DNA of 64,000 nt from an uncultured Chloroflexia bacterium (GCA_963754835.1 CAVWHR010000047.1:35568-99567), one strand, 5' to 3'; shown: positions 3,796 to 21,068, counted from the stretch's first letter. The notes: a model not told the origin generated them from the sequence alone. Numbers and translations are program-made.

Positions 3796-6700
3796 TTATT
3801 TTTTCAACCGATTGGCCAGAGCTGATTGAGGATCTTCCTTTTCCGACCAGTACGCATAGGCTTGGAACATTTTCCCCTCGCCTCTTTGTATGAGATACCC
3901 TCTGCCTGGCGGGAGATTGGCTGCGCGTTGAAAAGCAGGGACGCGAGCATTGTTGAAATTTTCAACTCCTTCACTTCCACCGAGCAAAACCCCACATCCT
4001 TGTTGCTTCATCCTTTGCATAAAGGAAGGCCCTGTGCCTCCAAACTCCGAAGGTAATTTTGATAGATCGCCGGCGACTATAAAAGCGAGGCCGTATTCTT
4101 CACCGCTAACCAGGCAATTTGTGAGTTTGTTTCTTTCGTTGCTTTCTATCTTGCTGGAAAATAATTCATAGCTATCGATAGCAACTAGAATTTGGGGTAA
4201 TGGTTCAAGGACCTTCCCAATATCGAAAAAATCGGGGTTCTTAGCGTATGCTTTTTCAGTCAAATCCACCCGTTTCTTAATCTCCTTTTCCAATTGATCC
4301 AAAGTCGGCTCGAGATCGGATTTTATTCCAACATATTTTTCCATCAAGGAAAGATGTCTCAACCCCGACAAATTCCTGCTGTGAAAATCAATCAGGTAAA
4401 TTTGAATATCCTTTTTAGTATAGTGCTCGGACAAACCCATCAACCAGGTGTTTAGCAGGGTAGTTTTGCCCGACCTTGGTGTTGACCCAGCTATAAGAAA
4501 AGATGGGCCATCTCTGTCGAGTGAAAACCCTACCTCTTTCAGCGTTTCATAATCTTTGCCAAGCGGTAAAAATAACGGACGTTTTGAAGTGGATACTGAG
4601 GTTCGTTTATCAGGTAAGGGCAGCGTAATCAACAACGGAAGACTTCCGATGGAAGGCGGAGTTTCCCCATGTTGGTTATCCCAGGCCTTGGTCATCTTTT
4701 CCGCTAAGGCTTTAAGGCCCGCAAATTGTTCACTGTCGGTTTCGCCTTTTACAGGTAGTGCTGCTTGAAACTCAAGAGGAGGAGACCCTCTAAGCAGACC
4801 ATGCCCCGGAACCGGCATTTTACTTATATCCTCCTTGATCTTTGCCTCCGATGGCTGCCCTACGATCTCAAAATAAGTACGATGATCAGCTTGATGCATG
4901 GTCATTCTCAGGTTAATGTTCCCAAAAAGGTCCTGTGGCAAATCTGAGGGAAGATTACTCGCGATGATGAGATGAACACCGGTGGCCAACCCGCCGCTCA
5001 CCAAAGAAGTGATGCTGCCCACAAGCTCTGTGCCACCGGGAGTATTCAGAAAAGTTCGCTTCAGGTTAGAGAATCCGTCAATCACCAGGTAAATTGTCGA
5101 CAGCTTTTGGGCCTTGTTTTTGAGATTCGCATTGTAATCAGCCAAGTTATCCATGGAGGTTTGGCGGAATATTTCATTGCGTTCCGCGATCCGGGCATGG
5201 ATGAACTCAATGAGACGCTGCGCTTTCTCGATTTCGAACCGCGTGATTACCGCGCCTACATGCGGAAAATCTTCAAGTATTTTAAGAGCGGATTGACCAC
5301 CGAAGTCCAGAATGTAAATCCATGCTTCATCCGGAGTCTTGGTATGGACGAGGGATGAAACAAAGGTCCGCAAAAGTGTGCTTTTTCCGGTCTTGCCAGA
5401 TCCAAAAATCAGTATATGGCCTTCACCGCGAGAAGGATCGACTCTCAATATAGACTGTCTTTGTTGGGCTGGTTGATCGCATAAGCCGATAATTGGATAT
5501 ACTGTCGAATCTGAGGATGCCTCGGTATTTCTTGCACGACTTTGTTTCCACTTCGAGGTACGGTCATCCCATCCGCCCTCGATGCTTTCCTGCAAGAGGT
5601 CAGGTAAATACAATCGTTCGGGTAATGGGTCGGGCCAAATCGCACGTGGTTTTCTCACATTTAGATTTTCAGCCGCGTATATTAATCGTTCTGCAATCAC
5701 TTGTGACTCAGTTCGTTCGATGGCTAAGGATTGGACTCCTTCCGGTAATGTCTTGGAAAGCGAAACTGTATCATGGCTCGCAAATCTGTACGGACCGCCT
5801 GAATACGCTGCTTGGAAAAGGTGCCTGGTTTGGGCAGCAAAATAGGCTCGTCCTCTGGGGAGGGCGACTGCGTCTCTTATGCCGATCATTTGGATGCTGT
5901 CTTGCGGATCACTAACCCGTAAGCAAATCCGGAATGTGGCATTTTGCAGGATTTCCGGATCGATCGCCGCTTGAATATTTTGTGTAGCTAAGACTAGGTG
6001 AATGCCAAGGGAACGTCCAAGCCTTGCGATACTGATAAGGCGGCGACTCTCCTCGGGGTGTCTTTGTTTGAACTCCGCAAATTCATCAAAGATGATTACT
6101 AACCTGGGCAATATGCGTTTTACGGGCAATTTACGATACTCGTCAATGTGTGTTCGTCCCAAGCCAAATGAGCTTCGTGCATCTTCCAGTACTTTCTTTC
6201 GGTGTTCAATCTCACCGCTCAAGGCCAATATTACGCGTTCCGCATAGGACGCATGAGTCTCGATATCGGTTACCACGCCAACGGTATGCGGCAAATGAAG
6301 AAGTTCGTTGAAAGCCGCGCCACCTTTATAATCAACCAAAGCAAAGTTTAAATCATAAGGATGATGAGTTAGCGCAAGAGCAAGAATAATTGTCTTAAGT
6401 ACTTCGCTCTTGCCCGAACCGGTAATTCCGCCAATCACCCCGTGCGGCCCATGAGCACCGTCCTTGTCACTCAAATCAAATATCAAAGCGGCTTTTTCAG
6501 AAATCCTCCCAATGGGTACCTTTAAATAATCGTAAGGCGATCCATTTTCCCACCAACTCTCGATGGGCAGCTCTTCTAATTTGCTAACACCAAATAATTC
6601 CAGAAAACCCAGACGAGTAGGTGGACGGGAGAGATCAGCAACCTGGTTCCAAGAAATAGCGCCAAGTTTTCTTGCTAATTCTTCGGCCTGCTTCACACTC

Positions 6701-7893
6701 ATGACATCCGGCCGATCACATCTAAACACACTTCCTCCCACCCCCGTTTCCTCGTAAATCCATTTGTTATCTTTAGCCTGGATGGTCGCTCCGCAGCCTC
6801 CGGGAATATCCTTCACATTTGTTTCCAAAAAGATGCCGTGGACTCCAAGTTCGCGTCCTTTTTGAAATAGCAGCGAGAGCGCCGGATGATTGTAAGACGT
6901 TGAAAGCTGATCAAAAATTATGAGAACCTGTGGAAGAATGACCGGCGTACTGGAAGGGTTTTTAGCTTTATCGTGGTCGGCTTCAATAATTTCCTCACGG
7001 CTTTGCAGTAATTTTTCGAGGGAATTCATGAACTCGGTACGAGCTTCTTTGTTGTTGGCTGATTGGGACCCGCGCCATTCCAGCAGGGTTGTCGCATGAG
7101 GTAGATGGTGCATCCAATCCCATTCAGCCCAAATAACACTTTCTTCACCGATTCCCGCAACCTCCACTTCTGTATACCAGTGATGCACCGCAATTTGAGA
7201 AATAAGTGCCCGAGTGATGTCATGCACTTCTCTTGGTTGACCTGCGATACCGATTGATCCGGTTTTTGGAAAGTTGAGAGTTACTGGAGCATCTGTAACC
7301 GTCGAATACTTCTGAAATAATTTATCGGCAATAATATATTCTTCCGTAAGCTCATGGGCGCGGCCTTTGGGGTCCACTTTTGTAAGCGTAATGGATGCAT
7401 TCACGGAGCCCAGGCCCAGTCTTGGACAAAGAAAGTCTGGATCTTCCGGACGTCTTTCTCCAATTCGCCGGTCCTGGTTGTTGACTCGACGAGTACACTC
7501 ATTCGTGTCCGGGCTTATATCCAGCATGATTTGGCGCTGAAGTTCCTGTATAGATCGTAAGCTTTTATCTGCAGCAGCCAGAGTATCGTTATATTCTTGT
7601 TTGGCCCGGGCGAAATCCTGATCATACTTTTTCTTTGCGGCACGGGAAGAAAACCATGTTCCGACGTAGGAGACCAACATTATGGGCAAGAAGATGAGAT
7701 ATCCAAAACCTGCACTACCGCCCCCTGAAACAAGCATAACAAAGACAATAGTAAGGATGATGGCGCCAAATGAAAGCAGGATGGTAATACGATCTAAAGG
7801 TCCCGGCCTGGATGGTAAAGTAGGCGGCGATGGAATCTCAATTGAGTCTTTCGGAAGAGGTTTTTGAATTCGAGGTGGACGGTTGAAGGACAT
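3796..7893 (-). CDS. essC: Type VII secretion FtsK/SpoIIIE-family ATPase (EssC/EccC-like), three P-loop domains
   Basis: 1365 aa. Two N-terminal TM helices (ITILLSFGAIILTIVFVMLV, GYLIFLPIMLVSYVGTWF). Walker A motifs GGITGSGKSE, IFGSGKTGKST, IAGSTPRSGKTT. Walker B-like LVIIFDEFAEF, IYLVIDGFS, ILVAIDSYE. Adjacent to three WXG100 genes. No N-terminal FHA domain. Confidence 0.9.
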   Translation of the reverse strand: MSFNRPPRIQKPLPKDSIEIPSPPTLPSRPGPLDRITILLSFGAIILTIVFVMLVSGGGSAGFGYLIFLPIMLVSYVGTWFSSRAAKKKYDQDFARAKQEYNDTLAAADKSLRSIQELQRQIMLDISPDTNECTRRVNNQDRRIGERRPEDPDFLCPRLGLGSVNASITLTKVDPKGRAHELTEEYIIADKLFQKYSTVTDAPVTLNFPKTGSIGIAGQPREVHDITRALISQIAVHHWYTEVEVAGIGEESVIWAEWDWMHHLPHATTLLEWRGSQSANNKEARTEFMNSLEKLLQSREEIIEADHDKAKNPSSTPVILPQVLIIFDQLSTSYNHPALSLLFQKGRELGVHGIFLETNVKDIPGGCGATIQAKDNKWIYEETGVGGSVFRCDRPDVMSVKQAEELARKLGAISWNQVADLSRPPTRLGFLELFGVSKLEELPIESWWENGSPYDYLKVPIGRISEKAALIFDLSDKDGAHGPHGVIGGITGSGKSEVLKTIILALALTHHPYDLNFALVDYKGGAAFNELLHLPHTVGVVTDIETHASYAERVILALSGEIEHRKKVLEDARSSFGLGRTHIDEYRKLPVKRILPRLVIIFDEFAEFKQRHPEESRRLISIARLGRSLGIHLVLATQNIQAAIDPEILQNATFRICLRVSDPQDSIQMIGIRDAVALPRGRAYFAAQTRHLFQAAYSGGPYRFASHDTVSLSKTLPEGVQSLAIERTESQVIAERLIYAAENLNVRKPRAIWPDPLPERLYLPDLLQESIEGGWDDRTSKWKQSRARNTEASSDSTVYPIIGLCDQPAQQRQSILRVDPSRGEGHILIFGSGKTGKSTLLRTFVSSLVHTKTPDEAWIYILDFGGQSALKILEDFPHVGAVITRFEIEKAQRLIEFIHARIAERNEIFRQTSMDNLADYNANLKNKAQKLSTIYLVIDGFSNLKRTFLNTPGGTELVGSITSLVSGGLATGVHLIIASNLPSDLPQDLFGNINLRMTMHQADHRTYFEIVGQPSEAKIKEDISKMPVPGHGLLRGSPPLEFQAALPVKGETDSEQFAGLKALAEKMTKAWDNQHGETPPSIGSLPLLITLPLPDKRTSVSTSKRPLFLPLGKDYETLKEVGFSLDRDGPSFLIAGSTPRSGKTTLLNTWLMGLSEHYTKKDIQIYLIDFHSRNLSGLRHLSLMEKYVGIKSDLEPTLDQLEKEIKKRVDLTEKAYAKNPDFFDIGKVLEPLPQILVAIDSYELFSSKIESNERNKLTNCLVSGEEYGLAFIVAGDLSKLPSEFGGTGPSFMQRMKQQGCGVLLGGSEGVENFNNARVPAFQRAANLPPGRGYLIQRGEGKMFQAYAYWSEKEDPQSALANRLKK

Positions 7894-7976
7894 GTATAAT
7901 ACCTCCCGGTTGTGTATTTAACCCAAACTTTTCCCTCTTATCTGGGCGCATATCATAGACAAGTCGTTATTAAATT

Positions 7977-8004
7977 CCCCCAACAATTTCTAAATTGTTG
8001 GGGG
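7977..8004 (-). terminator. Hairpin between the last WXG100 gene and essC (possible attenuator or partial terminator)
   Basis: CCCCCAACAATTT / AAATTGTTGGGGG inverted repeat (13 nt arms, 2-nt centre, so the inner pairs must open). On the minus strand it is followed by AATTTAATAA. Confidence 0.4.
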
Positions 8005-8034
8005 CTAACTTTTGTTCTGAGTTGATGGTGAGGA

Positions 8035-8304
8035 CTAAAGGCCGCTGTCAGTTTCACCAAAGGCCGTGGCGGCTCGTTGCAGCAATTGGCCCGCCTGTCC
8101 AAGCGACTGGATGGCTGCAGTAAGACTGGGTTGCATTCCCTGCCATTCCTGAAAGATCCTTTGAGCGCGGTTCCCAGTGAACTGGCCTTCAAGACTGTTC
8201 ATTAAGGATCGGGCTTGTGTCACAAGCGCCTCAAGATCAGCTTGTCGGGACATGAACTGCGAGCCAACACCTGAAACCTGACCTGTATCAATACGAATAG
8301 TCAT
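8035..8304 (-). CDS. WXG100-family protein
   Basis: 89 aa helical hairpin with a central W-x-G (IFQEWQGMQPSL). Sits beside the EssC-like ATPase. Confidence 0.85.
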   Translation of the reverse strand: MTIRIDTGQVSGVGSQFMSRQADLEALVTQARSLMNSLEGQFTGNRAQRIFQEWQGMQPSLTAAIQSLGQAGQLLQRAATAFGETDSGL

Positions 8305-8371
8305 TTTAGCCTCCTTGGCATGAATAAATGGACCTCAAATTATGTTTTGTTCTTTGTTTAGAAGTTAGGGC

Positions 8372-8644
8372 TCAGAACTTCTTGTCGACATGTTCGTAAC
8401 GTTCTGCCATGGCGTGCAATTCCCGGGCTATATTATTCAACAGAGTCTCAAAACCTCCTGAAGCTTGACCCCATTGCTCATACTGTTGATAGAATACTTG
8501 TTTGCTGGCCCCTTCCCATTTTTTCTCTAATTGACCGATGACTTTATCCAATCTTTTGGCGATTTCCGATGTATCCTGGCCCGCTTTTTTAAATTCCTCG
8601 GCTGCTTCGTGCAAGTCCTGGGGAGAAACTGTTGCGCCACTCAT
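8372..8644 (-). CDS. WXG100-family protein with C-terminal YxxxD motif
   Basis: 90 aa with central KKWEGASKQ (W-x-G). The C-terminus AERYEHVDKKF contains Y-x-x-x-D, the motif known as a T7SS export signal in actinobacterial substrates. Confidence 0.85.
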   Translation of the reverse strand: MSGATVSPQDLHEAAEEFKKAGQDTSEIAKRLDKVIGQLEKKWEGASKQVFYQQYEQWGQASGGFETLLNNIARELHAMAERYEHVDKKF

Positions 8645-8650
8645 AATAAT

Positions 8651-8932
8651 TTACCCGACGACATCCGGAACTTCCACGTATATGGTTACATGAATATTTT
8701 CTATGGTTTGAGCGTCGCTCATCAAGGATTCGGCAAGCGAATTCACTCTAGATGGCTGATTTGCAAATTCATCGAAGAATAAATCCTTGGAATGTCCCAG
8801 CCAATTCGTATCAAGCGTATCGCGGATGGAATTCAGGTTACTTGACGACGTGCGCAATTGAGCAGCGGCCCGCCTAAATTCTTGTGCAATTTCATGTGCT
8901 TCAGGTGGAACAAAAGTTCTGGCAACAAGCAT
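8651..8932 (-). CDS. WXG100-like protein (divergent, W-L-G)
   Basis: 93 aa with central LDTNWLGHSKDLF. Same operon, with a 6-nt gap to the next WXG gene. Confidence 0.65.
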   Translation of the reverse strand: MLVARTFVPPEAHEIAQEFRRAAAQLRTSSSNLNSIRDTLDTNWLGHSKDLFFDEFANQPSRVNSLAESLMSDAQTIENIHVTIYVEVPDVVG

Positions 8933-9164: not shown

Positions 9165-10351
9165 GTGGAGACAGCAATCGTGATCATTCAGGTCGATCCA
9201 TCTCTTCTCCATAGTAATGCGAATCAAATCCAAGAAGTTGGCGGTGATATATCTTCGCGGATCAGCAGCGCAGTCAGCGCTGCAGAGAGCGCTCCCAGTT
9301 ATGATGGGCAATTTGGGCCCAAAGTTGCAGCTATTGGAGCCGAGGTCGGTACACGCGGGGGTAATTTATCGGCATTATTGGGAAGCCTGGGTGAAAGACT
9401 GGGAATCAAAGCTACAGAATTTCAAAACGTTGATGATGCAGGCCTACCAGAGATTACCAGTTTTAGCACAGGTGTAATAAGTTGGCTGGAATCTTTCCTC
9501 TTTCCTAATGCTGGAGGAGGCACATTAGTTTCTTTACAAAGGTATCTTTCTCTCGGCAGCCTGCTTAATGGGAACGGAGCCAATCTTTCCTTCGGCGCGT
9601 TGTTTGCCATGATATTTGGATCAAGCCAAATGTGGGGTGGTTGGACTTTCTCCAGTATTGAACGTCCTGCCTGGTGGCCAGGTTGGCTGCCCTGGCTGTC
9701 GCAAGAGCCGGCCAGTATTGTTTCACCGATCCCCGATGACAATCCAAAACCTAAAACTACATTTGGAGATTTGCTGAAGGAAACGCCAGTCGCAAGCCCT
9801 TCCGCACAGGCAAGTGCACGCACCGACAACGGAATCATACGATGTTTATTACAACGTCCCCACCGAGGGGCAGAGTACGTTAAATAAAGATCATGGCTGC
9901 TCGGCGACGGCCGTAAGCATGTTGGTTGATTATTATCACGCTCAAAATGGAGCATACGCGGCTGCCACTCCGCAACAAATACAGACGCCTTTTGGAAATT
10001 CGGGTAATAATATTTCCATGTCCGACACGTCAGGTGAATTAACAAAGCTTGGATATAAGGCTTCATGGACATTTAATGGAGACCCGCCCGGGAAGACCGT
10101 TACGATGTCTGATCTACAATCGGCGCTTAAAGACGGGCCTGTAGCGGTGGTAGCAAAGGTTAAACTCGTCGGGTCGAGCGATGGGACCGGTACAATTGAT
10201 GGCCCTGGATGCTTATTCTCACGCACTAGTCGTTAAAGGCTTTGGAAAAGATACCGTCGTGGTCAATGACCCATGGTCAGGCAAGGAACTTCAAATCCCC
10301 GACGCCACATTTACTCAGATGTGGTCGGGGGGAGCAACGCCATCTTTGTAG
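9165..10351 (+). pseudogene. Candidate T7SS toxin: shared WXG/LXG-like N-terminal domain + W/P-rich linker + papain-like (C39-like) cysteine peptidase; two +1 frame breaks as assembled
   Basis: Fragment 9165..9887 carries the N-domain (VDPSLL..APSYDGQFGPKVAAIGAE). Fragment 9814..10236 has QSTLNKDHGCSATAVSMLVDYY (Cys nucleophile region). A third frame runs to TAG at 10349-10351 and has AYSHALVVKGFGKDTVVVNDPW (His region). Confidence 0.6.
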
Positions 10352-10383
10352 TCCGCCCTTCGTAAATAAGGGATAGCACTTTT

Positions 10384-11337
10384 ATGGATACATCCAAAGG
10401 ATCAATGAATATGACACTCATTAAGGTCGACCCTAGTATCCTGCAAGGTTCCGGCCAGGATATCCAGGGTAACGGGCAAAATATCTCTTCAGCCGGAAGC
10501 AGTGTCTTAGGGGCTGCAACGGGCGCGCCCAGCTACGACGGCCAGTTCGGCCCAAAAGTAGCCGCGATCGGACAGGAAGCCTACTCTCGATTGGGCAATT
10601 CCTCTGATCAGCTTGATAATTTAGGGTCAAGGCTTTCGCTTAAGGGTGCAGAATTTCAAGCGGTCGATATGGAAGGAGAATCTGGTTTTGCAGGTGGGTA
10701 TCCTCTTCAATTGCAAGGTGAAATAGGAGGAGTACTTACAAATGCTGCAAGTGGCCTTAATGCAGCTACTTCTGAAGCAGCGACACGGTTTTTAGATGTA
10801 GGTGGGGTTTTAACTGATGCAGGCCAGATTGCTTGGGAAACGAATTTAGCCGGGCAGTGGATTTCGGTGGCTCCATATCTTAATACCATAGCACAGACTG
10901 CTGGCCAGGAAACTTTGCTCGAAGAAGCAGTAAAAGATACAATAACATCCGAAAGCGAGTCAGTTGCTATACCTTTAGGAGGTCTAGGGAACCTTTTAGA
11001 TTGGGGAAAAGATTATTTTGAGTATCGAGACCAGGGTGCCACAATGGTTGCCTCAGCAATAGGTGTAGACACATCTATATCAGTTGTTGGAGAAGTTGGT
11101 GGAAGTATGATTGGAGGATTAATTGGAGGTGCTATAGGAACCTTTCTGCTCCCCGTCCCTGGTGTTGGCACTGTAGCGGGAGAGGCACTTGGTCAAGAAA
11201 TTGGTGGGGCAGTTGGTCCTATGGCAGCTAAATGGGCGATGGATAATATTCATATTTCTAGTGCGGGCAACGAAAGCTTGCACGATCTGGCAATTAAAGG
11301 CGTTTCAAGTGTTTTAACTGTTACTCCTGTTCAATGA
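10384..11337 (+). CDS. Candidate T7SS toxin: same N-terminal domain + glycine-zipper C-terminal region (membrane-active?)
   Basis: 317 aa. The N-terminus IKVDPSILQG..APSYDGQFGPKVAAIGQEA is paralogous to the gene at 9165. The C-terminus GGSMIGGLIGGAIGTFLLPVPGVGTVAGEALGQEIGGAVG has GxxxG repeats. The start may be an internal Met (10405 or 10411). Confidence 0.55.
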   Translation: MDTSKGSMNMTLIKVDPSILQGSGQDIQGNGQNISSAGSSVLGAATGAPSYDGQFGPKVAAIGQEAYSRLGNSSDQLDNLGSRLSLKGAEFQAVDMEGESGFAGGYPLQLQGEIGGVLTNAASGLNAATSEAATRFLDVGGVLTDAGQIAWETNLAGQWISVAPYLNTIAQTAGQETLLEEAVKDTITSESESVAIPLGGLGNLLDWGKDYFEYRDQGATMVASAIGVDTSISVVGEVGGSMIGGLIGGAIGTFLLPVPGVGTVAGEALGQEIGGAVGPMAAKWAMDNIHISSAGNESLHDLAIKGVSSVLTVTPVQ

Positions 11338-11395: not shown

Positions 11396-12229
11396 ATGTA
11401 TAAAAAAGGAATAAATATGAGTAGAAACTCAAAAAGCGATTCCAACTTTAATGACTACAAGTTGGGATTTGAGGAATTAGTGATGGCGATCGGTTTGAAT
11501 GGAGAACCCGATATTGCAAAAAAGTCGCTTGTTGCTTTTACAGGAAAATCAAATAACGACGAGGACCGGGGACGTTTACTTGCCGCGAGTCATACTTTGT
11601 TAGCCAAAGAACTTATCACCTTGGATAAGGATACGGGTAAGCTACAACTTCAAGATGATTTAAAGCATATCATTAATATAATTACCAAATATCAATTATC
11701 GCTGCGTTTTAGCTATGGGCCTAAAATGGCAGAAAAAATCTTAGCCTATTATTATCTTGATAAAAAGATTGTTAAGCATGAAATTCTGCCGGAAGCAGTT
11801 CATCGATTATCATGGGTAACTGACCAAAGCCAAATTCTGCAAGATGGAATTCATTTCCTTGGGTTCAATACCTGCAAAGATTTTAAATATCAAGAAGCTG
11901 AAATAAAACAATCTCTCTTAGAAAAGGCTAAAGAAAAAGTAACAACTCAACCTAGCATAGTGCTTGATTACCTCATAAAAGCCGGTGTTTCGAAAAAAAA
12001 CGCTGAACTTTTAAGTGATGATCTTCTCCATCCTGATTATCGTGGAAGTGTTTTACGCGTGGAAAGAAAAGATGGTGGAATAGTATCAGATAGAGGATTT
12101 CTTGTCATGATGCGTAAACCACGGGCCTGGATATTTCCAGTTTATTTTAAGAAGGATGAGCCATATGTACATATCCTTTCTGGCACCGACTCTTCTTTCA
12201 AGAATGAAGTGTTGGCTTTGGTCAAATGA
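11396..12229 (+). CDS. Hypothetical soluble protein, EspG-like pattern (tentative)
   Basis: 277 aa with no TM. The segment DYLIKAGVSKKNAELLSDDLLHP..RGFLVMMRKPRAWIFPVYF resembles, by eye, the C-terminal half of actinobacterial EspG chaperones. Paralogous to the next gene. Confidence 0.35.
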   Translation: MYKKGINMSRNSKSDSNFNDYKLGFEELVMAIGLNGEPDIAKKSLVAFTGKSNNDEDRGRLLAASHTLLAKELITLDKDTGKLQLQDDLKHIINIITKYQLSLRFSYGPKMAEKILAYYYLDKKIVKHEILPEAVHRLSWVTDQSQILQDGIHFLGFNTCKDFKYQEAEIKQSLLEKAKEKVTTQPSIVLDYLIKAGVSKKNAELLSDDLLHPDYRGSVLRVERKDGGIVSDRGFLVMMRKPRAWIFPVYFKKDEPYVHILSGTDSSFKNEVLALVK

Positions 12230-12267: not shown

Positions 12268-13075
12268 ATGAAAAAACAGACGAAAATTGACGAGATAACT
12301 GTGGAACTTTCAAGCGACGAGTTTTGGTTTCTTATACAACAGTTCAGTCCTGCGGTTGTATTAGGGATGCAGAACCCTCATCTAGGTTGGTTAATAGAGG
12401 AAATTGAAAAGGCTGATCGCAGCTCTTTGAGAATACTAGTAGATCGTGGCTTTGTCCGAATTGCCTCGAAAGAATCAAATTGAGCTCGATGACGTGCTTG
12501 CCACCATGATGCGGACGTGCGTCCATCCACAGCATACCGTTATTTCCCAGTTCCAGGATTCAAAGGGCGCAAATAAACAGAGATATATCCATTTCGGCAC
12601 CAATTTGATCGTGGAACATGTCGAATTCAAACGCGGCCAGCATCGCCTGACTGCCCTAAAAGACCGTGAGGTTCTTCTTGCTCATTTGGATGAAGTATTA
12701 AGACTTTCATCTACTGCGTCGAGCCACGGCGGTAAATTCCGCCTGCAGGAGCAGGCTTTATTCGAAGCTCGCTCGCTATGTTCGCAGGGACATGCTCGCA
12801 AGGCCCTCACCAATCTCAAAAAAGCAAAGCTTTCCGAGGAAAAAGCGGGGTTACTTGCCAAAGCCTTGACCAACCCGGTCGCCAACTCTGCATTTGTGAC
12901 CCTTTCCAATCAGGCAAAGCCCCAAATCCAAAATGTGAAAGGTTTTGCCTTGTTGGAAAGCAAAAATGAATTCTGGATCTTGTTACCCTACGATAAAGAC
13001 GGAGATAAGATGGTTGAATTCATTCCCGCCAATTCCAAGCTCGTAAAACAGCGTTTTCTTGAGATTCTCCCATAG
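12268..13075 (+). pseudogene. Paralog of the preceding EspG-like gene; one +1 frame break as assembled
   Basis: Fragments 12268..12483 and 12446..13075. LKKAKLSEEKAGLLAKALTNP..KGFALLESKNEFWILLPY parallels the previous ORF. Confidence 0.35.
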
Positions 13076-13087: not shown

Positions 13088-13855
13088 ATGGCAAATAATG
13101 ATGCCACAAAAAACCAGGATGAATTAATAGATACCGGCAGCACACGTCGTTTCCTGACCGTTGAAGCTGAACACCGTCCCGAAAGAGTGGAAATGGAATT
13201 GAAGGGCGACTTGCGCATCGGGGTGTTGTTTCCAATCCTCATCAAGACGCTTGGGTGGCGCATGGTCAGCGAAGAAGCGGACCCGCGCTTTCGATTGATC
13301 GCGATCAAAGATGGCACGGAAATTGAATTAAAAAACTCGGATACGTTGATCAGCGCAGATATCCCCAGCGGGTCCGAACTTAGGATCATGTTCGTCGACA
13401 AAAAAGGAGTAAGCAAGGGATTTGCCCAGAATACGATCCTGGGGCTTGAATCAACGCCGGGACTTGAAAACGGCTTTGGAGTTGGAAATTCCCAGGATCG
13501 ACAAGCAACCATTGCACCGCCTCATTGGGACGAACAGGTAAAGGAGCCTTGCTTCATTGCGTCCTCCGGTAATGTCTTTCCGATCCGAAACCCGCCTCTT
13601 TGGATTGGGCGGCCCGATAAAGGATTTAAACCAGAGATCAATCTTGCCAGGGAAGAAGACCTGGATAATCCAACCGTAAGCCGAAGACATGCCCAGATAT
13701 TTTATGAGGACGATAAGTATGTTCTCAGACCCAAGCCCAGCGTGTGGGGTACATTTGTAAATGGACAGGAGCTTCGCCATAGCCAGGGCCATAATATGAC
13801 AGATGGAGATCGTGTGCGATTCGGTGAGGTGGAGACGATATTTCGATTGCCGTGA
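13088..13855 (+). CDS. YukD/EsaB-like ubiquitin-fold domain fused to an FHA domain
   Basis: The N-terminus LTVEAEHRPERVEMELKGDLRIGVLFPILIKTLGW..RFRLIAIKDGTEIELKNSDTLISADIPSGSELRI fits the YukD beta-grasp pattern. The C-terminus LWIGRPD..NPTVSRRHAQIFYEDDKYVLRP..WGTFVNGQEL..GDRVRFGE is a canonical FHA domain. Confidence 0.65.
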   Translation: MANNDATKNQDELIDTGSTRRFLTVEAEHRPERVEMELKGDLRIGVLFPILIKTLGWRMVSEEADPRFRLIAIKDGTEIELKNSDTLISADIPSGSELRIMFVDKKGVSKGFAQNTILGLESTPGLENGFGVGNSQDRQATIAPPHWDEQVKEPCFIASSGNVFPIRNPPLWIGRPDKGFKPEINLAREEDLDNPTVSRRHAQIFYEDDKYVLRPKPSVWGTFVNGQELRHSQGHNMTDGDRVRFGEVETIFRLP

Positions 13856-13937
13856 AGTTGTTTTTTTTTTCTGAAAAAACGAAAAGATACGTATCACATC
13901 AATTTCTAAATTTTCTTAATCGCAAATTAAACTTATT

Positions 13938-14882
13938 ATGGCTATAAGATTAAAAAGAGGTCAAAAAATTTCGGAATTCACTGTTAAAGGTCTGCTACCC
14001 GAAGGAAGCAGCGGTATGGCAACCGTTGTGAGGGCTATAGGCATTGATGGGGTCGAAGTGGCACTAAAAATCAGTAATTCTGTTAGTGATCGATATTACG
14101 CCGATGCACTCATTGCGGAAACTGAGATACTCCAAAAACTTGACAATCCGGGCGTCGTAAAAATCCTTCCAATTCAAACTGATAATAGTAAGACACGGTT
14201 TATGAAACGAGCGATGGAACTTGATGGAAACCCATGGTTCTTTGCGATGGAATATTTGGAAGGCGGTTCGTTACGGGATTGGTTAAATAGAGTAATCGTG
14301 CTCGCTCCAGGCGAAGCTGCCTTTGTTGCTTTGAAAGTTGCTTGGGCACTGGATTATGTACACTCAAAGGAATATGTTCACAACAACGTCAAGACCGACA
14401 ATATACTCTTTCGGGGTAAATTGGTAAAAGGCTGTGTTTTGGAACCAGTGCTAATTGATTTCGGAATTTTTGCAAAAACAAGGAAAACTCAGCAAGATGC
14501 TGGCTCTCTACAATGGATGTCGCCTGAACGCCTTCAACAGATAAGAGGAGCTTTGGCACCAGAAGTTAACGTGGACGCTACCAAGGTGGATATATATGCG
14601 ATTGGCGTATTATTGTATCGAATGTTAACTACAAAGATGCCTTTTTCAGGTATGACTGAAAGCGGTCATGCCCAACTAATTAGGTTAATACCCCCTAGCC
14701 GCGCATCTACAATTAATTCAAAAGTCCCTTCGGGGCTCGACGAATTGATCATGGCTTGTTTGACTAAACGCCCCGAAGCGCGACCGACTATTCCTCAACT
14801 CATTAAAGAACTCTCGGTATTTAGCGAAGATCAGGTCGTCACTTTGCCGAAGGCTAAAATCCAATTTAGTTGGTTTAAGTAA
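13938..14882 (+). CDS. Hanks-type Ser/Thr kinase-like protein, probable pseudokinase (catalytic loop HNN)
   Basis: 314 aa with VEVALKI (Lys), the catalytic loop YVHNNVKTDN (Asp replaced by Asn), IDFG and WMSPERL. No TM or sensor domain. Confidence 0.8.
   Translation: MAIRLKRGQKISEFTVKGLLPEGSSGMATVVRAIGIDGVEVALKISNSVSDRYYADALIAETEILQKLDNPGVVKILPIQTDNSKTRFMKRAMELDGNPWFFAMEYLEGGSLRDWLNRVIVLAPGEAAFVALKVAWALDYVHSKEYVHNNVKTDNILFRGKLVKGCVLEPVLIDFGIFAKTRKTQQDAGSLQWMSPERLQQIRGALAPEVNVDATKVDIYAIGVLLYRMLTTKMPFSGMTESGHAQLIRLIPPSRASTINSKVPSGLDELIMACLTKRPEARPTIPQLIKELSVFSEDQVVTLPKAKIQFSWFK
14013..14155 (+). repeat. 143-nt block, inverted copy at 18870..19012 (2 mismatches)
   Basis: Hand alignment of this kinase gene against the reverse complement of the kinase gene at 18143..19087: 141/143 identical. 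The flanking coding sequence is much more diverged. Confidence 0.9.
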
Positions 14883-14945: not shown

Positions 14946-16415
14946 TCATTTCGATAGATCGCAGCTACCTGGCTGACTTCCACTGCAGATAGTATTCCAC
15001 ATTTTCCAATCCTCATCTGTGATCGACTCATTCGACGTGGGATTGCTGGGTGAAGTCATGTCGATATTGGTCTTACCGGGCGTCGACAGGTTTATAAGAA
15101 CCTCACCTGGTGGTGTATATTGGCAGGCACCCTGCAAACAATAAGCTACTACGGAAGTTCCTTCCTCCGATACACCTAATATCCCTTTTCCACCACTCGA
15201 CAAAATTATCTGAGCATTCTTTTCATTCTGTTGAGCAGGAATTAATATAGCATATTTTCGACTGCCATCTGAACGAACAAGAATTTGCCCTTTCATAAGA
15301 GTAATTTCGGTCAGGTTAATAAATCCTGGATCAGCCGGCGAATTTCCAACAGTCGGTGCGAGGTCCAAGGTAGTGAGAATTGCCTCAGTTTGTTCTGAAA
15401 GATAGATATCTATTCCCGTTATATTCGTAGTATTCGAATTTGATGTATCTGCCCGCCGCTCGAGTTTCAGATTAACTGTGTTACCATTCAAGACGACTAG
15501 AGATATCCCAGGATTAATTGTCGTAAGTTGCTGAATATTAGTTTGAGTTTTAGTCTGTGGGTCAACGCTAGCCGCATTTCCTGAAACAAGAATCGCCAAG
15601 CCAAGATTTTGAGGTCGCGAAGGTTGTTTAGGTTGAAGAGTATATCCGACTGCAATGATTAGCAAAAGAACGACGGCGATTGCAGACACCGCCAAAATGT
15701 TTACAAAAGGTTTTGCGGATCTTCGGCCTAAACCAAGAACTACCACCGTGATATCATCATCTGAATCTAAGCCCTTGGCGATGGAAGTTAGATAACGCGC
15801 TGAACCATGAATGTTGTCATTATTACAAGCAGCTTGAATCTCCCCTTTTACTTTATTATCATAGCTTTCTTTTTCCGGTAAATCGAACAAGCCATCACTG
15901 CAAATAACGATCCTATCCCCTTTCTTAAGTGCCGCTTCCTCTATATGAATATCAAGCGGATCCAGCGAATCGCCTAGACATCTAACACTCCCAAGAGGAT
16001 ATTCAACAAGCGATTCACTTGACAACAATGAAGCGCGGGTTAGTCGGCCTACTTGCCCCATGTGAAGCCGGTTGTTCTTTATAGCAACGACCGTGACACC
16101 TACATAATCATTTCCGTGGTTTTGTTGATAAACAAGTGCATTCGCCGCAAATAAGGAACCTTGTAAAATTTCGTTGAGACTCTTTTCATTTGCCTGTTCA
16201 AATTCAGTAAAGATTGTATCAACTGCCAGTTTTGCTGCCACTTCAGGAGAATTATTTCCCCCACCATCAGCAACGATAGACAAATATACAAGGCCTAATT
16301 GACGGGTCTTAACAGTCTTCGATTCCCAATGATCTTGTTGGGGAGTTTTCTTATCCAAAATACCTTTTTGTTGATCTACGTCTCTTGTTATCAAATTAAT
16401 TAAATTCGTATTCAT
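14946..16415 (-). CDS. Membrane-anchored PP2C phosphatase with extracytoplasmic C-terminal domain
   Basis: 489 aa. PP2C motifs SIVADGGGNN, VICSDGLFD, DDITVVVL. TM segment FVNILAVSAIAVVLLLIIAVGY. An outside domain of about 230 aa carries CLQGACQY and a C-terminal Cys pair. Confidence 0.8.
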   Translation of the reverse strand: MNTNLINLITRDVDQQKGILDKKTPQQDHWESKTVKTRQLGLVYLSIVADGGGNNSPEVAAKLAVDTIFTEFEQANEKSLNEILQGSLFAANALVYQQNHGNDYVGVTVVAIKNNRLHMGQVGRLTRASLLSSESLVEYPLGSVRCLGDSLDPLDIHIEEAALKKGDRIVICSDGLFDLPEKESYDNKVKGEIQAACNNDNIHGSARYLTSIAKGLDSDDDITVVVLGLGRRSAKPFVNILAVSAIAVVLLLIIAVGYTLQPKQPSRPQNLGLAILVSGNAASVDPQTKTQTNIQQLTTINPGISLVVLNGNTVNLKLERRADTSNSNTTNITGIDIYLSEQTEAILTTLDLAPTVGNSPADPGFINLTEITLMKGQILVRSDGSRKYAILIPAQQNEKNAQIILSSGGKGILGVSEEGTSVVAYCLQGACQYTPPGEVLINLSTPGKTNIDMTSPSNPTSNESITDEDWKMWNTICSGSQPGSCDLSK

Positions 16416-16497
16416 AAATATCCGATATCTCCAAGGATTTCATTCGAAGAAATCAAGGAACGTTTAAACTAAAAAGCAACAAGTCTACTATCATGAT

Positions 16498-18107
16498 TTA
16501 CGGCGGACATGGAGTACCGAGGCTCTTGTAATACCTACAAGCTTGAGTCGCAGCAATGTTCGGTGTAGCTGATGGAGTGACAGTAGGAGTAGGTATCAAA
16601 TCAGGGATGAATTGCCAGAGTTCATTTCGAGTGCCTGATCCAGTGGATATCACCTCCGCTCCATTCAAAACTACATGAGAGCCTTGAGGTAGGGACTGAT
16701 TTAAACTGTTTTCGAGATATCCACAAGTACCCTCTAAACAATCAAAATATAATTCGTGTTTCAGAGGATCATACTGAAGTCCCATTATTGAGCCGCTAAT
16801 CCAAGCCTGTGATCCATAAGAAGTCTCCACTATGAAATGCTGATCCTTGTTAAACGTGTTTGGCAATTTAACAAGCAGCATTCCTTGATTAAGTATTATA
16901 TCCAAGGAGTCTTTTGTAAGTATTTCAGTTCCATCGGCAAGATATAACTCAACCTGTCCAGGAAAACCAATAGCTGCATACCCGTTTCCGTTCCCTGAAG
17001 TTGTTAAAGTTTCTCCGCTGTTGAAATCGATTGGAGTATCATCGGATAGTTTGGTGGTGTTATTATCCACCGACCGAGCCTGAAGGGTTGTGTTCCATAC
17101 TTTAGAAATATAGATTTGATTCACAGAAATAGTAGGTAATGGAGGAGCGGGAGGTGAAGGAGGATTCAGGATACGAGGAAGTAGTGTTAATGCTAAAAAA
17201 GCAAAAGCTAAAACAACCGCCCCGATTGGTAGCGCCGAGGGTGGCAATCTCAACGGCTGCTTGCCTCCAGGAATCTCCATCACAATAACTGAGACATTAT
17301 CGTCCACATTTCGATCTAAAGCCTTTTGAATAAGTTGGTCCGGAGCCTCTTTATTAGGGACACTCGTAACAATCTTTACGATTTCTGGCAATTCGACAAA
17401 ATGGCCATCCCCTCCTGGGCGTGACTTGATCAAACCATCAGAACAAAGGATAACTCGGTCCCCAGGTTTAAGTATCATCCCTTGGTTGTGAACTGCGTCA
17501 GCCTCGCTTACATCCGACCCTTGAAAATAAAGCCCCAGATCAACTGCGACAGTCGATTCGTATCCGATGGAGCGCACTAATTCTCCATGCCGGGGATGGC
17601 GAGCTGCTTCTATACTGGTTAGCTTGCGGGATTGGACAACTTCGCGCTCCCAGGTATGATCCACTGTGAGCTGCGAAATCTTGTTATCTCTTACGAGATA
17701 GATTCGACTGTCTCCCACATTCGCCACATATAGATGATTATTAAGAATCGCTGCTACGGTAGCAGTCGAACCCATGTTTTTCTTGTGAGCTTGCTTTTGA
17801 GCTTCATTGAAAACTAGGGAATTAACTTTGTCAATGCCGTCTTAAGCATTTCGGGGATGTTCGTATCAGTGGATTCTTTGCAAAATTGATATATGTTTTC
17901 TGCGGTCAACTCCGCAGCTACTTCTCCCGCATTTTCACCGCCTATACCATCTGCAATAATTCCTAAGCCAATAGACAAACCTCCTTTTGTTAAGATTTGT
18001 TCACATATGAACCGATCTTCAAGGAGACGCTTTAGTTTTTCCCATTTTCCAATGCTTTTATTGCCACTTATCTTAGGAGGAGAAACAAGGGGTAATTGCA
18101 TAATCAT
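16498..18107 (-). pseudogene. Second membrane-anchored PP2C phosphatase; one frame break (near 17830) as assembled
   Basis: Fragment 17814..18107 has GIIADGIGGENAGEVAA. Fragment 16498..17775 has MGSTATVAAI, VANVGDSR, ILCSDGL, DDNVSVIV, the TM segment ALPIGAVVLAFAFLALTLL and an outside domain with DCLEGTCGY. Confidence 0.75.
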
Positions 18108-18142
18108 TGCCTTTCTAATTATGATAAAGGACCTTTTGCAAT

Positions 18143-19087
18143 TTATCCAAATTTTCCAAAGAGTCCCTTACCTTGCGGTACGATCACGACATGTTCTGTA
18201 CTATATTGGCCCAATTCTTTGATAAGCTGACGTGTCGCAGGTCGCGCTTCGGGACGCTTGGCCATACAAGATATTATTAATTCGTCGAGACCAAGTGGAA
18301 CTTTAGAATTTGAAGTCCTTACTTGTTCAGGTATTTTATTAAGGATGGCAGTTGTAACACCTTTTTCAGTGATTCCTGTGAACGGCATCTTTGTAGTTAA
18401 CATCCGATATAACAACACCCCAATAGCATAAATATCTACTTTCGTTGTATCAACTTTTACTTCTGGCGCCAATTCGTTTCTTACCTGCATTAATCGTTCC
18501 GGGGACATCCATTGAAGCGATCCGGCATCCTGTTGTATATGCCTGGTTTTCGCGGCAATTCCGAAGTCAATCAGCACTGGTTCAAAAACGCCGCCTTTCA
18601 CCAATTTATGACGAAAGATTACATTGTCCGCCTTGACATCATTATGTACATAATCTTTTGAGTGAACATACTCTAGGGCTTTTGTAACTTCCCGAGCAAT
18701 GAAACTGGCTTCGCCTGGTGCCAATATGTTAACCTTCTTTAGCCAATCCCTTAATGAACCACCTTCCAAGTATTCCATGATAAAGAACCATGGATGCCCA
18801 TTCAATTCGGTTGCCCTTTCCATATATAGTGTTTTCCCAATATCAGTATGGATTGGCAGTATTTTCACAACGCCCGGATTGTCAAGTTTTTGGAGTATCT
18901 CAGTTTCTGCAATGAGTGCATCGGCGTAATATCGATCACTAACAGAATTACTGATTTTTAGTGCCACTTCAACCCCATCAATGCCTATAGCCCTCACAAC
19001 GGTTGCCATACCGCCGCTTCCTTCAGGCAGCAAGTCTTTGATTATGAATTGCGAAATTCTTTGCCCTTTCTTGATCGCTATGGCCAT
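18143..19087 (-). CDS. Hanks-type Ser/Thr protein kinase (catalytic loop HND intact)
   Basis: 314 aa with VEVALKI, YVHNDVKADN, IDFG and WMSPERL. Paralog of 13938..14882 in inverted orientation. Confidence 0.85.
   Translation of the reverse strand: MAIAIKKGQRISQFIIKDLLPEGSGGMATVVRAIGIDGVEVALKISNSVSDRYYADALIAETEILQKLDNPGVVKILPIHTDIGKTLYMERATELNGHPWFFIMEYLEGGSLRDWLKKVNILAPGEASFIAREVTKALEYVHSKDYVHNDVKADNVIFRHKLVKGGVFEPVLIDFGIAAKTRHIQQDAGSLQWMSPERLMQVRNELAPEVKVDTTKVDIYAIGVLLYRMLTTKMPFTGITEKGVTTAILNKIPEQVRTSNSKVPLGLDELIISCMAKRPEARPATRQLIKELGQYSTEHVVIVPQGKGLFGKFG
18870..19012 (-). repeat. Inverted partner of the 143-nt block at 14013..14155
   Basis: See 14013..14155: 141/143 identical after reverse complementation. 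Confidence 0.9.
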
Positions 19088-19128
19088 ATTATTATCCTCG
19101 GTATAAAAAGTCTATAGCACAAAAGAAC

Positions 19129-21068
19129 TTACCTTCGACGAGGTGTGGTAATTCTACCTTCTATATCCTCGATAGGAGTATCACTCCTTTTTGAATCTGA
19201 AGGATCGTTGTCTTCCGATGGACTGACCAGTGAGAAGCGAAGTCGAATTCCACCTCGCTCGACTTGTCCAAGTTCTATTTCGTCACCATTATGTAACGCT
19301 TCAGGGGTGAGCGGCACAAGCTTTGTATTGTTTAGGTATGTTCCCCATTGGCTGTCTTCGTCTCGAACTGAAAACCCATCATCGCCTTCCTGAATTGTGC
19401 AGTGTAAACGGCTGATGACGCTATCCTCGTCGTTTGCATGGAAGATCAGTTCGGCGTGCCTCCGCGATCTACCGATCGAAGTCGTCCCATAAAGCTCGAA
19501 CGTTGTACGCCCCGAATCAATTCCGGCCATAGCTATTAAATAAGCTTTAGGTGACGCAAGGTTGCGCCTCTTTGTAAGACCTGTGACAATTCCTATTCCT
19601 CCCTCAACTACGCTGCTACCAACAGTTGCAATTTGGCGACGGAAGACAACTACCAGAGCAAGTGCGGCTAACGCAATACCCAATGCTAGAAAATTCGTAT
19701 AAGGTGCTACAACTGTAACTGTAGAACATAGAAAACCGGGGAGTCCTCTACACGCATCCGGCTGGGTTAAGACTATTAGAGGAACACTGGCGCTTGTGCT
19801 CGTCATGCCAAGTTCGTCAGTCACTTGGACCTGGACGGAGACGGGATTCTGCCCCGTTTGGTTATAAGTACGCAAATCCCACGGGACTTGTATAACACCG
19901 GAATTATCTATGGTCGGATTGGCAACTGTTCCCTGGGTCTGATTACCAACCACAACAGAAATGCTGGCTAGCTTACGTGGATGACTATCAGGCCAATCAA
20001 TCTTGACTGTCAAAGAAGCAACATCGGTCCCGGTTCCAGAATTGCTCTGGCCCAATGCCGCTGTACTTGGATTCCGGATTACGGTAGAGTTAGGGGCAGG
20101 ATTCTGAATTGACACCTGAGGCGGTTGCAATGAGATGTCATAGGTTTTGGATGCCGGGATGTTATTCGCGGCTGTGGTTATTACCACCTGACGGTTTCCA
20201 CTATTTGAATTAGGAGTACGGTAGGTGATCAGATATTGATCGCGCCACAATCCCATCGCCTGGTATATCGTATTTGCCGCTTCGGAGGAACTGTATAAAC
20301 TGTAAGCCCCGCCTCCAGCTTTGGCCAAATCACTTAAACTAGCCCCGAATCCATCATCTCCGGCTCTGAATAAGAGCGAATTGATCGTCGGATGATCTTC
20401 ACCTGCCAGTTGGCTGATAACGCTTCTATAAATATCAGGGGTCTGATTTTGGAATCCTGAGGAAAGAAATACGATAAAAGGCTCTTTCCCGTCGGTTTGT
20501 TGCTTCAATCTCGTAAGCGCGTCTAAAACCCCAACATATCCTGATGATGCTTGTGTCGCGTTATATTGATAACCGTTAATGCTGTTCTGAAGATCAGTCG
20601 CCGATGAACTGAAATCGTTAATTACGTTGGTTTTATCCCCATCCTGAGCAAGGATCATGACCGAGTCGGCAGCGTTCATTTGGGAAATGTAATTTTGTAT
20701 TGCTGATTTCATCTCGGAATATCCGAGTTTGCCCCGTAGCGCCAACCGCATTAAGTCCTTGTCCCGCATCAATCAGGAAAATAACACGTATCCCGGCAGT
20801 ATAAGGATCCATGGAAAATTGAACAGGTTGTCCATCTTCATTTACCGTAATAGATTGGGGGGTCAAATTGGTGATCGGAACCGTTATTAGGGCCCAGTGC
20901 TTGTAGTAAGACTTTGATGTTTGGAAATTCTGAAGTATCAATGGTTGATATTTTTAGATTTCGTATCGCATCCTGCGCGAAAACGGGACTTAAATTCGCA
21001 CCCGCCAACAAAACAAATAGAACGAATAAAGACAGAATTGATTTCCACCTAACCATGATTGCCTCCAA
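19129..21068 (-). pseudogene. Signal peptide + vWA-like domain + Ig-like region + TM + cytoplasmic FHA domain; two +1 frame breaks near the 5' end as assembled
   Basis: Fragments 20838..21068 (signal MVRWKSILSLFVLFVLLAGA), 20633..20941 (RVIFLIDAGQG) and 19129..20772 (KLGYSEMKSAIQNYISQMNAADSVMILA). TM segment LALGIALAALALVVVF. C-terminal FHA: IGRSRRHAELIF..ISRLHCTIQ..WGTYLNNTKL..GDEIELG. Confidence 0.7.

Follow-up and report, generated by a model that had tools for sequence, protein, structure and literature searches.

The window analysed here is a stretch of 64,000 nucleotides from an uncultured Chloroflexia bacterium (GCA_963754835.1, CAVWHR010000047.1:35568-99567), and all positions are counted from its first letter. 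Positions 3796-21068 of this Chloroflexota sequence carry a type VII secretion system (T7SS) gene cluster, in which a phospho-signalling set stands where the usual membrane partners of the secretion ATPase would be expected. A cluster of this kind had been described in an earlier reading of the sequence (the original prediction). We confirmed it, and all parts listed there were recovered with strong statistics. The genes are given below; TM denotes transmembrane and indel an insertion or deletion.

3796-7893, minus strand: EssC/EccC-type T7SS ATPase, 1365 amino acids (aa), FHA-less at its N-terminus, with three P-loop domains and a pair of TM helices (residues 36-79)
8035-8304, minus strand: WXG100-like protein A (WXG-A), 89 aa, with a WQG motif and C-terminal FGETD (Pfam WXG100 E=2e-8; TIGR03930 E=2e-10)
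8372-8644, minus strand: WXG100-like protein B (WXG-B), 90 aa, with C-terminal AERYEHVDxKF containing the YxxxD export-signal motif (WXG100 E=1.8e-17)
8651-8932, minus strand: divergent WXG100-like protein C (WXG-C), 93 aa, with a WLG motif (WXG100 E=3e-4, below the cutoff)
9165-10362, plus strand: effector 1, broken by at least two single-base indels; its N-terminal module of about 95 aa is WXG100/EspC-like (YDG turn, EFxxVD) and is joined by a hydrophobic linker to a C-terminus resembling a C39 peptidase
10384-11337, plus strand: effector 2, 317 aa, with an N-terminal module as in effector 1 and a glycine-rich hydrophobic C-terminus
11396-12229, plus strand: EspG-like chaperone paralog 1, 277 aa, aligned by hhalign to the neighbouring paralog family; Pfam ESX-1_EspG in the family
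12268-13075, plus strand: EspG-like chaperone paralog 2, always directly upstream of YukD-FHA; single-base insertion near 12470
13088-13855, plus strand: fusion of a ubiquitin-like YukD domain to an FHA domain (YukD-FHA), 255 aa, with a beta-grasp domain (20-103), a disordered linker (105-150) and FHA (150-255)
13938-14882, plus strand: kinase paralog, probable pseudokinase (Pkinase E=1e-36), with the catalytic Asp replaced (HNNVKTDN)
14946-16415, minus strand: PP2C-A, 489 aa, a divergent PPM phosphatase without GDSR or flap, with one TM helix and a Cys-containing ectodomain
16498-18107, minus strand: PP2C-B, a canonical PPM phosphatase with a single TM helix, whose ectodomain is homologous to the PP2C-A ectodomain; single-base deletion near 17800
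18143-19087, minus strand: Hanks-type Ser/Thr kinase, soluble, 314 aa, no TM helix (Pfam Pkinase E=7e-40; VALK, HNDVKxDN, DFG, SPE)
19129-21068, minus strand: vWA-TM-FHA protein, interrupted by two single-base indels, with a signal peptide (AxA-type site), an extracytoplasmic vWA domain and beta-rich region, then a single TM helix and an FHA domain in the cytoplasm

The same gene order was found in six independent metagenomic loci (L001/L004, L002/L003, L015/L016, L017, L018 and L019), referred to below as the relatives. The closest named one is L001, at the same place as L004, from 'uncultured Chloroflexia bacterium MFD01689.bin.1.12' of a long-read collection of metagenome-assembled genomes (MAGs).

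Secretion components of the locus

The ATPase gene matched Pfam FtsK_SpoIIIE in three stretches (E=1.5e-64) and the NCBIfam EssC model TIGR03928 with E=1e-219 and 732 bits, slightly under the equivalog cutoff of 778 bits. The scores against EccCa (477 bits, cutoff 509) and EccCb (339 bits, cutoff 346.5) were also slightly under their cutoffs. Because all three scores lie just below threshold, the window EssC falls between the curated actinobacterial and firmicute families. It aligned to the Thermomonospora EccC of solved structure with E=1.4e-100. Against further solved structures, the alignment started at residue 226 of the Bacillus subtilis YukB chain and at residue 6 of EccC5, and the protein starts 35 residues ahead of the first TM helix. 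From these two alignment starts and the position of the TM helices, we conclude that EssC has no N-terminal FHA domains. The L001 ortholog is 85% identical, and the N-terminus is conserved across all relatives.

Three WXG100 proteins had been predicted next to the ATPase and all three were found, with only WXG-B exceeding the Pfam WXG100 cutoff (63.8 bits). WXG-A was kept in all loci, as was the position of WXG-C. The YxxxD motif of WXG-B was retained in seven of seven loci, with variable terminal residues. In a broader form, [YF]xxxD, the motif ends helix 2 in WXG-A (FGETD), WXG-B (YEHVD), effector 1 (FQNVD) and effector 2 (FQAVD).

Thus the general features of a T7SS are present: a membrane multi-P-loop EssC/EccC ATPase, adjacent WXG100 genes and a YukD-type ubiquitin-like domain. 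The usual membrane partners were missing, as originally predicted. Pfam and NCBIfam scans of the sizeable open reading frames (ORFs) between 519 and 22799 detected no EssA, EssB, EsaA, EccB, EccD, EccE or MycP. For the T7SSa set (EccB, EccD, EccE, MycP), the only polytopic candidate in this interval has a GT-C fold, as described below. For the T7SSb set (EssA, the membrane pseudokinase EssB, EsaA), the profile scans were likewise negative, and the kinases of the locus have no TM helix. Rfam gave zero matches in the window.

Both effector candidates begin with a common module of about 95 aa that contains VDPSLLQ, an APSYDGQFGP turn and the EFxxVD motif. Intact orthologs of effector 1 were present at L019:4849-6105 and L018:5716-6966. 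We compared 13 effector N-termini; seven matched WXG100, six matched EspC and none matched LXG. The LXG-style toxins of the original prediction were not recovered, and the N-termini are of the WXG100/EspC type instead. The rest of its proposed mixture of actinobacterial and firmicute traits stood, namely an FHA-less EccC-like N-terminus, the YxxxD motif (AERYEHVD), EspG-like proteins and YukD. The effector C-termini differ among the loci (C39-like peptidase, CHAP, VgrG3-like lysozyme). They look like cell-wall hydrolases (C39-like, CHAP or lysozyme-like) or, in effector 2, a glycine-rich membrane domain, and this hydrophobic C-terminus suggests a membrane-active role. At L017:6636-9070, neighbouring effector genes have near-identical N-termini of about 170 aa, followed by a CHAP domain in one and a VgrG3-like lysozyme in the other. 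This pair is a textbook case of cassette swapping in polymorphic toxins. Neither of the two L017 effectors is followed by an obvious immunity gene.

Between the effectors and YukD-FHA lie the two EspG-like genes, whose products form paralogous families (hhalign probability 99.3%, E=6e-21). Pfam ESX-1_EspG was matched by four of 15 family members, with a best E-value of 2.3e-6, and on the contig of a distant homolog (P0076) the gene before YukD-FHA is a clear EspG match. Since profile searches of these families against PDB sequences gave nothing meaningful, the EspG assignment rests on the Pfam matches in paralogs and orthologs. A homolog search with paralog 1 returned two proteins only. A 257-aa protein of the more distant locus L020 was considered as an EspG-like candidate and rejected, as it had no detectable EspG resemblance.

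The phospho-signalling genes and their linkage to secretion

The gene order shared with the relatives starts with GT2, a polytopic protein of 610-642 aa, EssC of 1360-1370 aa and three WXG100-like genes. On the opposite strand follow one to three effectors, one to three proteins of about 270 aa and YukD-FHA. The convergent part consists of PP2C-A, PP2C-B, a kinase of 310-314 aa (called as 288 aa in L001) and vWA-TM-FHA of 614-652 aa; PP2C-B is duplicated in L015 and L019. Kinase, PP2C-A, PP2C-B and YukD-FHA were present in six of six relatives and vWA-TM-FHA in all five whose contig reaches that far; the L019 contig breaks off short of the polytopic gene at one end and shortly after the kinase gene at the other. 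Identities to the window proteins were 53-79% for YukD-FHA, 65-80% for the kinases and 59-65% for vWA-TM-FHA (L001, L002). The continued linkage of these genes, for which a synteny comparison had been proposed together with the original prediction, was thereby established, and from their retention in all six syntenic relatives we conclude that the kinase/PP2C/FHA module belongs to the T7SS. Canonical membrane partners hidden among the hypothetical ORFs and a kinase module unlinked in related genomes would have spoken against the original prediction, and neither was found. The other matches of the genome scan (L005-L014) matched the FHA domain only, and L013 was without obvious T7SS genes.

Both gene sets are joined in the YukD-FHA fusion, one of two FHA proteins that had been predicted. 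Its FHA domain was detected in the window copy with E=2.8e-14. YukD scored 23.3 bits, under the 27-bit Pfam cutoff, and was matched by homologs of the window protein; one full-length homolog carries the Joint Genome Institute annotation 'ubiquitin-like protein YukD'. The AlphaFold2 (AF2) model (pLDDT 70) shows a beta-grasp domain of bb-a-bb-b topology (b, strand; a, helix), a disordered linker and an FHA domain. The best PDB structural matches were the FHA domains of the phosphothreonine binders OdhI, GarA, FhaA and EmbR, and the N-terminal domain matched SUMO. Close homologs form about 15 clusters among 5.8 billion proteins. A profile search of 1.84 billion representative proteins gave 25 matches below E=1e-30, with the full-length fusion (219-286 aa) in about 35 of the best 150 cluster representatives. 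Thus the fusion is not rare.

The predicted pair of an active Hanks kinase and a pseudokinase was found with HNDVKADN and DFG at 18143-19087 and HNNVKTDN at 13938-14882. In seven orthologs of the main kinase, the VALK Lys, the alpha-C Glu, HNDxKxDN, DFG and SPE are invariant, and a TM helix is absent. The second kinase is 73% identical to it and restricted to the window, with no counterpart in the relatives. Both paralogs form an inverted repeat of 733 nucleotides (78% complementary; 13934-14666 and 18359-19091) that brackets the two PP2C genes and could allow inversion of the PP2C segment.

Two PP2C phosphatases with extracytoplasmic domains had also been predicted, and both genes encode the order PP2C-TM-ectodomain. 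PP2C-A keeps four metal-binding Asp positions. PP2C-B has the canonical motifs RYxED, ADGIGGENAGE, NVGDSR, CSDGL and DDNVS, and its intact L001 ortholog matches Stp1 PP2C with E=2.7e-50. The Cys-containing ectodomains of both proteins are mutually homologous. A tentative assignment of these ectodomains as FecR comes from weak matches in three of 16 members.

The FHA domain of vWA-TM-FHA was detected with E=1e-13 (Pfam). Its pocket (GR, SxxH, GT..N) is invariant, comprising G537, R538, S557, H560, T581 and N584 in the numbering of the L001 ortholog. The vWA domain attained the Pfam cutoff only in the intact L002 ortholog (29.7 bits). TIGR03436 was matched with E=2.5e-11, and the metal ion-dependent adhesion site of the vWA domain is degenerate, with serines changed to Gly. 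The cytoplasmic side carries two invariant basic motifs with Thr, of which LTKRRxxSTPKAYL directly follows the TM helix and TKPRRR forms the C-terminal end (L001 residues ~500-515 and 645-652; window 19129-20772). They are candidate phospho-acceptor or docking sites.

Synteny and domain fusion show that the kinase, the two PP2Cs, the secreted-vWA-TM-FHA protein and YukD-FHA occupy the place of the canonical partners. We consider it probable that the locus encodes a phosphothreonine-gated T7SS, in which this phospho-signalling set takes the place of EssA/EssB/EsaA or EccB/D/E/MycP; the gating idea has good support from comparative genomics. In such a system, the FHA-less EssC/EccC translocase would export the three WXG100-like proteins. 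It would also export the polymorphic effectors via their WXG100/EspC-like targeting module of about 95 aa (YxG turn, [YF]xxxD), accompanied by the EspG-like chaperones. The YukD domain would dock on EssC, as the EccD ubiquitin-like domain and YukD do in solved T7SSa and T7SSb complexes (PMC12637312). The FHA domains of YukD-FHA and of the vWA membrane protein would bind phosphothreonine written by the kinase, either on the kinase itself or on a juxtamembrane segment, and this interaction would assemble or activate the channel. The PP2Cs would reverse the phosphorylation, and the ectodomains of the PP2Cs and of the vWA protein might sense an envelope or external cue.

Several observations weigh against phosphothreonine gating of this T7SS. 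To begin with, the six syntenic relatives are all fairly close to the window, and part of the common gene order may reflect shared ancestry. The trio of EspG-like protein (probability 99.6%), YukD-FHA and vWA-TM-FHA (probability 100%, 32% identical across the whole protein) recurs at L023:9216-12729, where EssC, kinase and PP2C genes are all absent within 10 kb. The trio may be a tighter evolutionary unit. That it does not adjoin EssC there would fit a vWA/kinase/FHA/PP2C operon of a widespread envelope-signalling type, independent of a minimal EssC/WXG100 system and merely located beside it. Operons of vWA, Ser/Thr kinase, FHA and PP2C genes do occur without a T7SS, for example Deinococcus DRA0331-0334 (bioRxiv 10.64898/2026.01.23.701218). 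However, one FHA domain is fused to YukD, a T7SS-specific domain, and an EspG-like gene always lies directly upstream of this fusion. In addition, all close relatives have the module together with EssC, and T7SSc-j and the Esr-Esx loci discussed below show the same combinations of genes. We regard an independent operon as highly improbable.

The second group of observations concerns the chemistry of the switch. The phosphate-contacting Ser of the SxxH motif in YukD-FHA is present in the window and the wider family, and it is Gly in most close orthologs, so that judged by its residues this FHA domain may bind its partner without phosphate. The main kinase is of the non-RD type (HND). The kinase, FHA and YukD parts might thus be purely structural scaffolds of a membrane platform, with secretion not switched by phosphorylation. 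The kinase copy without the catalytic Asp in the window would be in line with scaffolding, and there is a T7SSb precedent in which the EssC FHA domain, lacking a phosphothreonine pocket, binds the EssB pseudokinase without phosphorylation (PMC11217815; PMC12637312). Scaffolding is nevertheless quite unlikely in our judgement, as the main kinase retains all catalytic motifs in seven lineages, two to three PP2Cs with intact metal ligands are always present and would be purposeless without phosphorylation, and the FHA pocket of vWA-TM-FHA is invariant.

Finally, the window copy is interrupted. At least seven frame breaks of a single-base type affect six genes between 519 and 21068, and all of these genes are intact in relatives. 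PP2C-B is split into 17814-18107 and 16498-17775, and vWA-FHA into three frames (20838-21068, 20633-20941 and 19129-20772). Further splits lie in the EspG-like gene at about 12470, in effector 1 at about 9820 and near 10215, and in the GT2 gene at about 1200. In an alignment to the intact L001 orthologs, three of the junctions (PP2C-B, vWA-FHA, EspG-like gene) proved to be gains or losses of one base, and the remaining frame changes are consistent with the same kind of event. If the indels are real, the window copy may be non-functional in this organism. The locus would then be a decaying pseudogene cluster in this genome, with phosphatase, vWA-FHA, chaperone and effector genes killed by frameshifts, and the IS630 element at 23051-24111 could be read in the same way. 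This is unlikely, since all defects are indels of plus or minus one base with no nonsense substitution identified, and the fragments stay open and are about 45-77% identical to intact orthologs over their full length. Moreover, overlapping ORFs outside the locus (40654-42930 and 42681-45224) may be another split gene, and the nearest relative stems from a set of long-read MAGs with contigs named in the form contig_NNNN. The pattern fits assembly indel errors, which are probably the cause rather than decay.

Glycosyltransferase neighbours and flanking sequence

Two further genes lie beside EssC in the window, at lower coordinates:

519-1725, minus strand: GT2 glycosyltransferase, its gene interrupted by an indel; presumably works with the GT-C protein
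1722-3593, minus strand: polytopic GT-C-fold glycosyltransferase, adjoining EssC (AF2 pLDDT 87.8, Foldseek)

The polytopic protein had no match in Pfam, NCBIfam or PDB sequences. Its structure was predicted by AF2 from a 43-sequence alignment (pLDDT 87.8, pTM 0.91). A Foldseek search against the PDB returned ArnT, PglB, STT3, ALG9, EmbB, Pmt4 and DPY19. The possibility of a hidden EccD was rejected, as the protein has a GT-C fold and no EccD was among the Foldseek matches. Near the N-terminus, the family has an invariant Asp with an adjoining, nearly invariant Glu, and one distant homolog matches Pfam PMT_2. Based on the Foldseek matches, the Asp/Glu pair and the PMT_2 homolog, the protein is a GT-C glycosyltransferase paired with the adjacent GT2 gene.

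The GT-C gene, with its GT2 partner (519-3593 in the window; L002:1-1974), adjoins EssC in every relative in which that flank is covered. The GT-C/GT2 pair is a conserved neighbour and not a canonical T7SS membrane component; its functional tie to the T7SS is putative, and it may glycosylate the envelope or secreted and ectodomain proteins. At L020:10001-13131, where the GT-C homolog is 40% identical, the pair stands alongside Wzm/Wzt ABC transporter genes and large glycosyltransferases. No T7SS was found near a 31%-identical GT-C homolog (L021). The preceding part of L020 (1-10004; distant MAG GCA_963852015.1) carries a WXG100-C39 effector, five tandem Ser/Thr kinase genes and an SH3 protein next to the GT-C/GT2 pair. 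Three of the five kinases have sensor-type domains (3-keto-disaccharide hydrolase-like, Bmp, periplasmic binding protein). An apparent GT-C-PP2C fusion (P0035) was rejected; it is an RsbU-type fragment run into a GT-C gene and is unrelated to the PP2Cs of the locus.

Beyond the other end of the cluster, there are a gene for a lipoprotein-like protein with an FGE-sulfatase domain (21075-22799) and, behind it, an IS630-type transposase split over two frames (23051-24111). In the relatives, both are missing from the vicinity of the locus, and for this reason the FGE-sulfatase gene was not counted as part of the cluster. L001 has a different transposase at the same edge. Between 28000 and 32000, the G+C content is 58-65%, against 41-47% in the T7SS region and about 50-56% further on, with many overlapping ORFs on both strands. 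This part may be a foreign insert or an assembly join. A conflict/defence-like cluster occupies 35900-51064 on the plus strand. It encodes a 1584-aa STAND ATPase-TPR-Sortilin/BNR protein, a 599-aa TIR-nSTAND2 NTPase and four more Sortilin/BNR beta-propeller proteins, two of whose ORFs overlap and may represent a single split gene. The relatives show no synteny for the Sortilin/BNR propeller genes at 35.9-49.3 kb.

Comparison with known secretion systems

Knowledge of T7SS biology comes from two phyla. Kinase, PPM phosphatase, FHA and vWA genes have been described in the subtypes T7SSc-j of Bacillota and Actinomycetota by Garrett, Higginson & Palmer 2024 (PMC11217815), who proposed phospho-regulation for them and cited the type VI secretion system (T6SS) as precedent. 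Among these, T7SSc (TscA-G) consists of WXG100, YukD, an FHA-less ATPase, a membrane kinase, a cytoplasmic vWA protein, a cytoplasmic PPM phosphatase and an EspG-like protein (PMC11217815). The locus described here resembles it in having an FHA-less EssC-type ATPase, WXG100, a YukD-like fold, an active-site-intact kinase, PPM, vWA and EspG-like proteins, and in lacking the T7SSa and T7SSb membrane parts. It differs in phylum, being from Chloroflexota rather than Bacillota. Furthermore, YukD carries a fused FHA domain, unlike the free-standing TscB; the kinase is a soluble protein, in contrast to the membrane-anchored TscD; and the vWA protein is secreted-vWA-TM-cytoplasmic FHA, whereas TscE is cytoplasmic. 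The PP2Cs are membrane-anchored with ectodomains and present in two to three copies, in contrast to the cytoplasmic TscF, and there are three WXG100-like genes instead of one. Thus gene content is alike and five of five accessory architectures, topologies or counts are unlike, as compared by published description.

In Actinomycetes, the Esr pathway (vWA/MoxR/kinase/phosphatase/FHA) is embedded in Esx loci, as reported in a September 2026 bioRxiv preprint (PMC13622651). An FHA protein of this pathway is Thr-phosphorylated, and the Esr2 branch was shown experimentally to control a subset of Esx substrates post-translationally (PMC13622651). Our locus likewise has a vWA protein, a kinase/phosphatase pair and FHA output proteins inside a T7SS locus. 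The Esr hallmarks MoxR, the beta-propeller surface sensor EsrA and the sortase-like EsrD were all absent from the conserved block of the window and its relatives. The FHA partners also differ, being YukD and a secreted vWA domain here versus a pseudophosphatase, zinc fingers or EccC in Esr, which is reported to be essentially confined to Actinomycetes (PMC13622651). The 'vWA ternary system' of Kaur et al. 2020 was considered as a match and rejected, since it corresponds to the MoxR/VMAP system.

The T6SS threonine-phosphorylation pathway (PpkA/PppA/Fha1; Agrobacterium TssL-Fha) is similar in that a Hanks kinase, a PP2C and an FHA protein control secretion post-translationally. However, the secretion apparatus is unrelated and no T6SS genes were found here, so that this is an analogy and not a homology of systems. 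PpkA also has an extracytoplasmic vWA domain. With T7SSa (ESX), the locus shares the EccC-like FHA-less N-terminus, YxxxD on a WXG100 protein and EspG-like chaperones. In contrast to T7SSa, there is no EccB, EccD, EccE or MycP, and the ubiquitin-like domain lies outside a polytopic EccD.

In the full-text literature searched, only the occurrence of WXG100 proteins and of T7SS-linked toxins in Chloroflexi/Chloroflexota was stated, and no text described this locus architecture. The phosphothreonine-gating idea, including the T6SS analogy, is already published for other phyla (PMC11217815), and kinase/FHA control of Esx has been shown in Actinomycetes (PMC13622651). Because the regulatory idea is already published, the conceptual picture is unchanged. 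New here are the phylum and the domain wiring (YukD-FHA and ecto-vWA-TM-FHA). The locus extends the kinase/phosphatase/FHA-associated T7SS to Chloroflexota.

This wiring can be compared with the T7SSb structure, in which YukD bridges the YukB FHA domains and the YukC pseudokinase and promotes their binding (Oka et al. 2025; PMC12637312). Both systems combine the EssC ATPase with three domain types: the ubiquitin-like fold of YukD, FHA and a kinase fold. The FHA domain is on YukD here and on EssC in T7SSb, and the kinase is free and catalytically intact here and a membrane pseudokinase there. PP2Cs are present here, and EssA and EsaA are absent. By analogy, the locus would be a catalytically live, domain-rearranged version of the T7SSb triad of YukD, EssC-FHA and EssB pseudokinase. 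Given the YukD-FHA fusion, the free and catalytically intact kinase and the FHA-less EssC, it would represent the same physical triad in a regulatable form. A more far-reaching proposal, which we put forward only tentatively and with some doubt, is an unnamed Chloroflexota T7SS subtype beyond T7SSa-j. In this subtype, the signalling proteins would form the membrane platform of EssC as a live, possibly ancestral counterpart of the T7SSb triad, and the GT-C/GT2 pair would have been co-opted.

The features that make the locus useful are its fusion-based wiring, its predicted live kinase and its conserved GT-C/GT2 neighbours. Because the kinase appears catalytically competent and phosphatases are present, phosphorylation switching of T7SS assembly should be directly testable with a few soluble domains. 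The natural fusions YukD-FHA and ecto-vWA-TM-FHA independently predict which parts are in contact, and this prediction agrees with the contacts between YukD, FHA and pseudokinase in the T7SSb cryo-electron microscopy structure.

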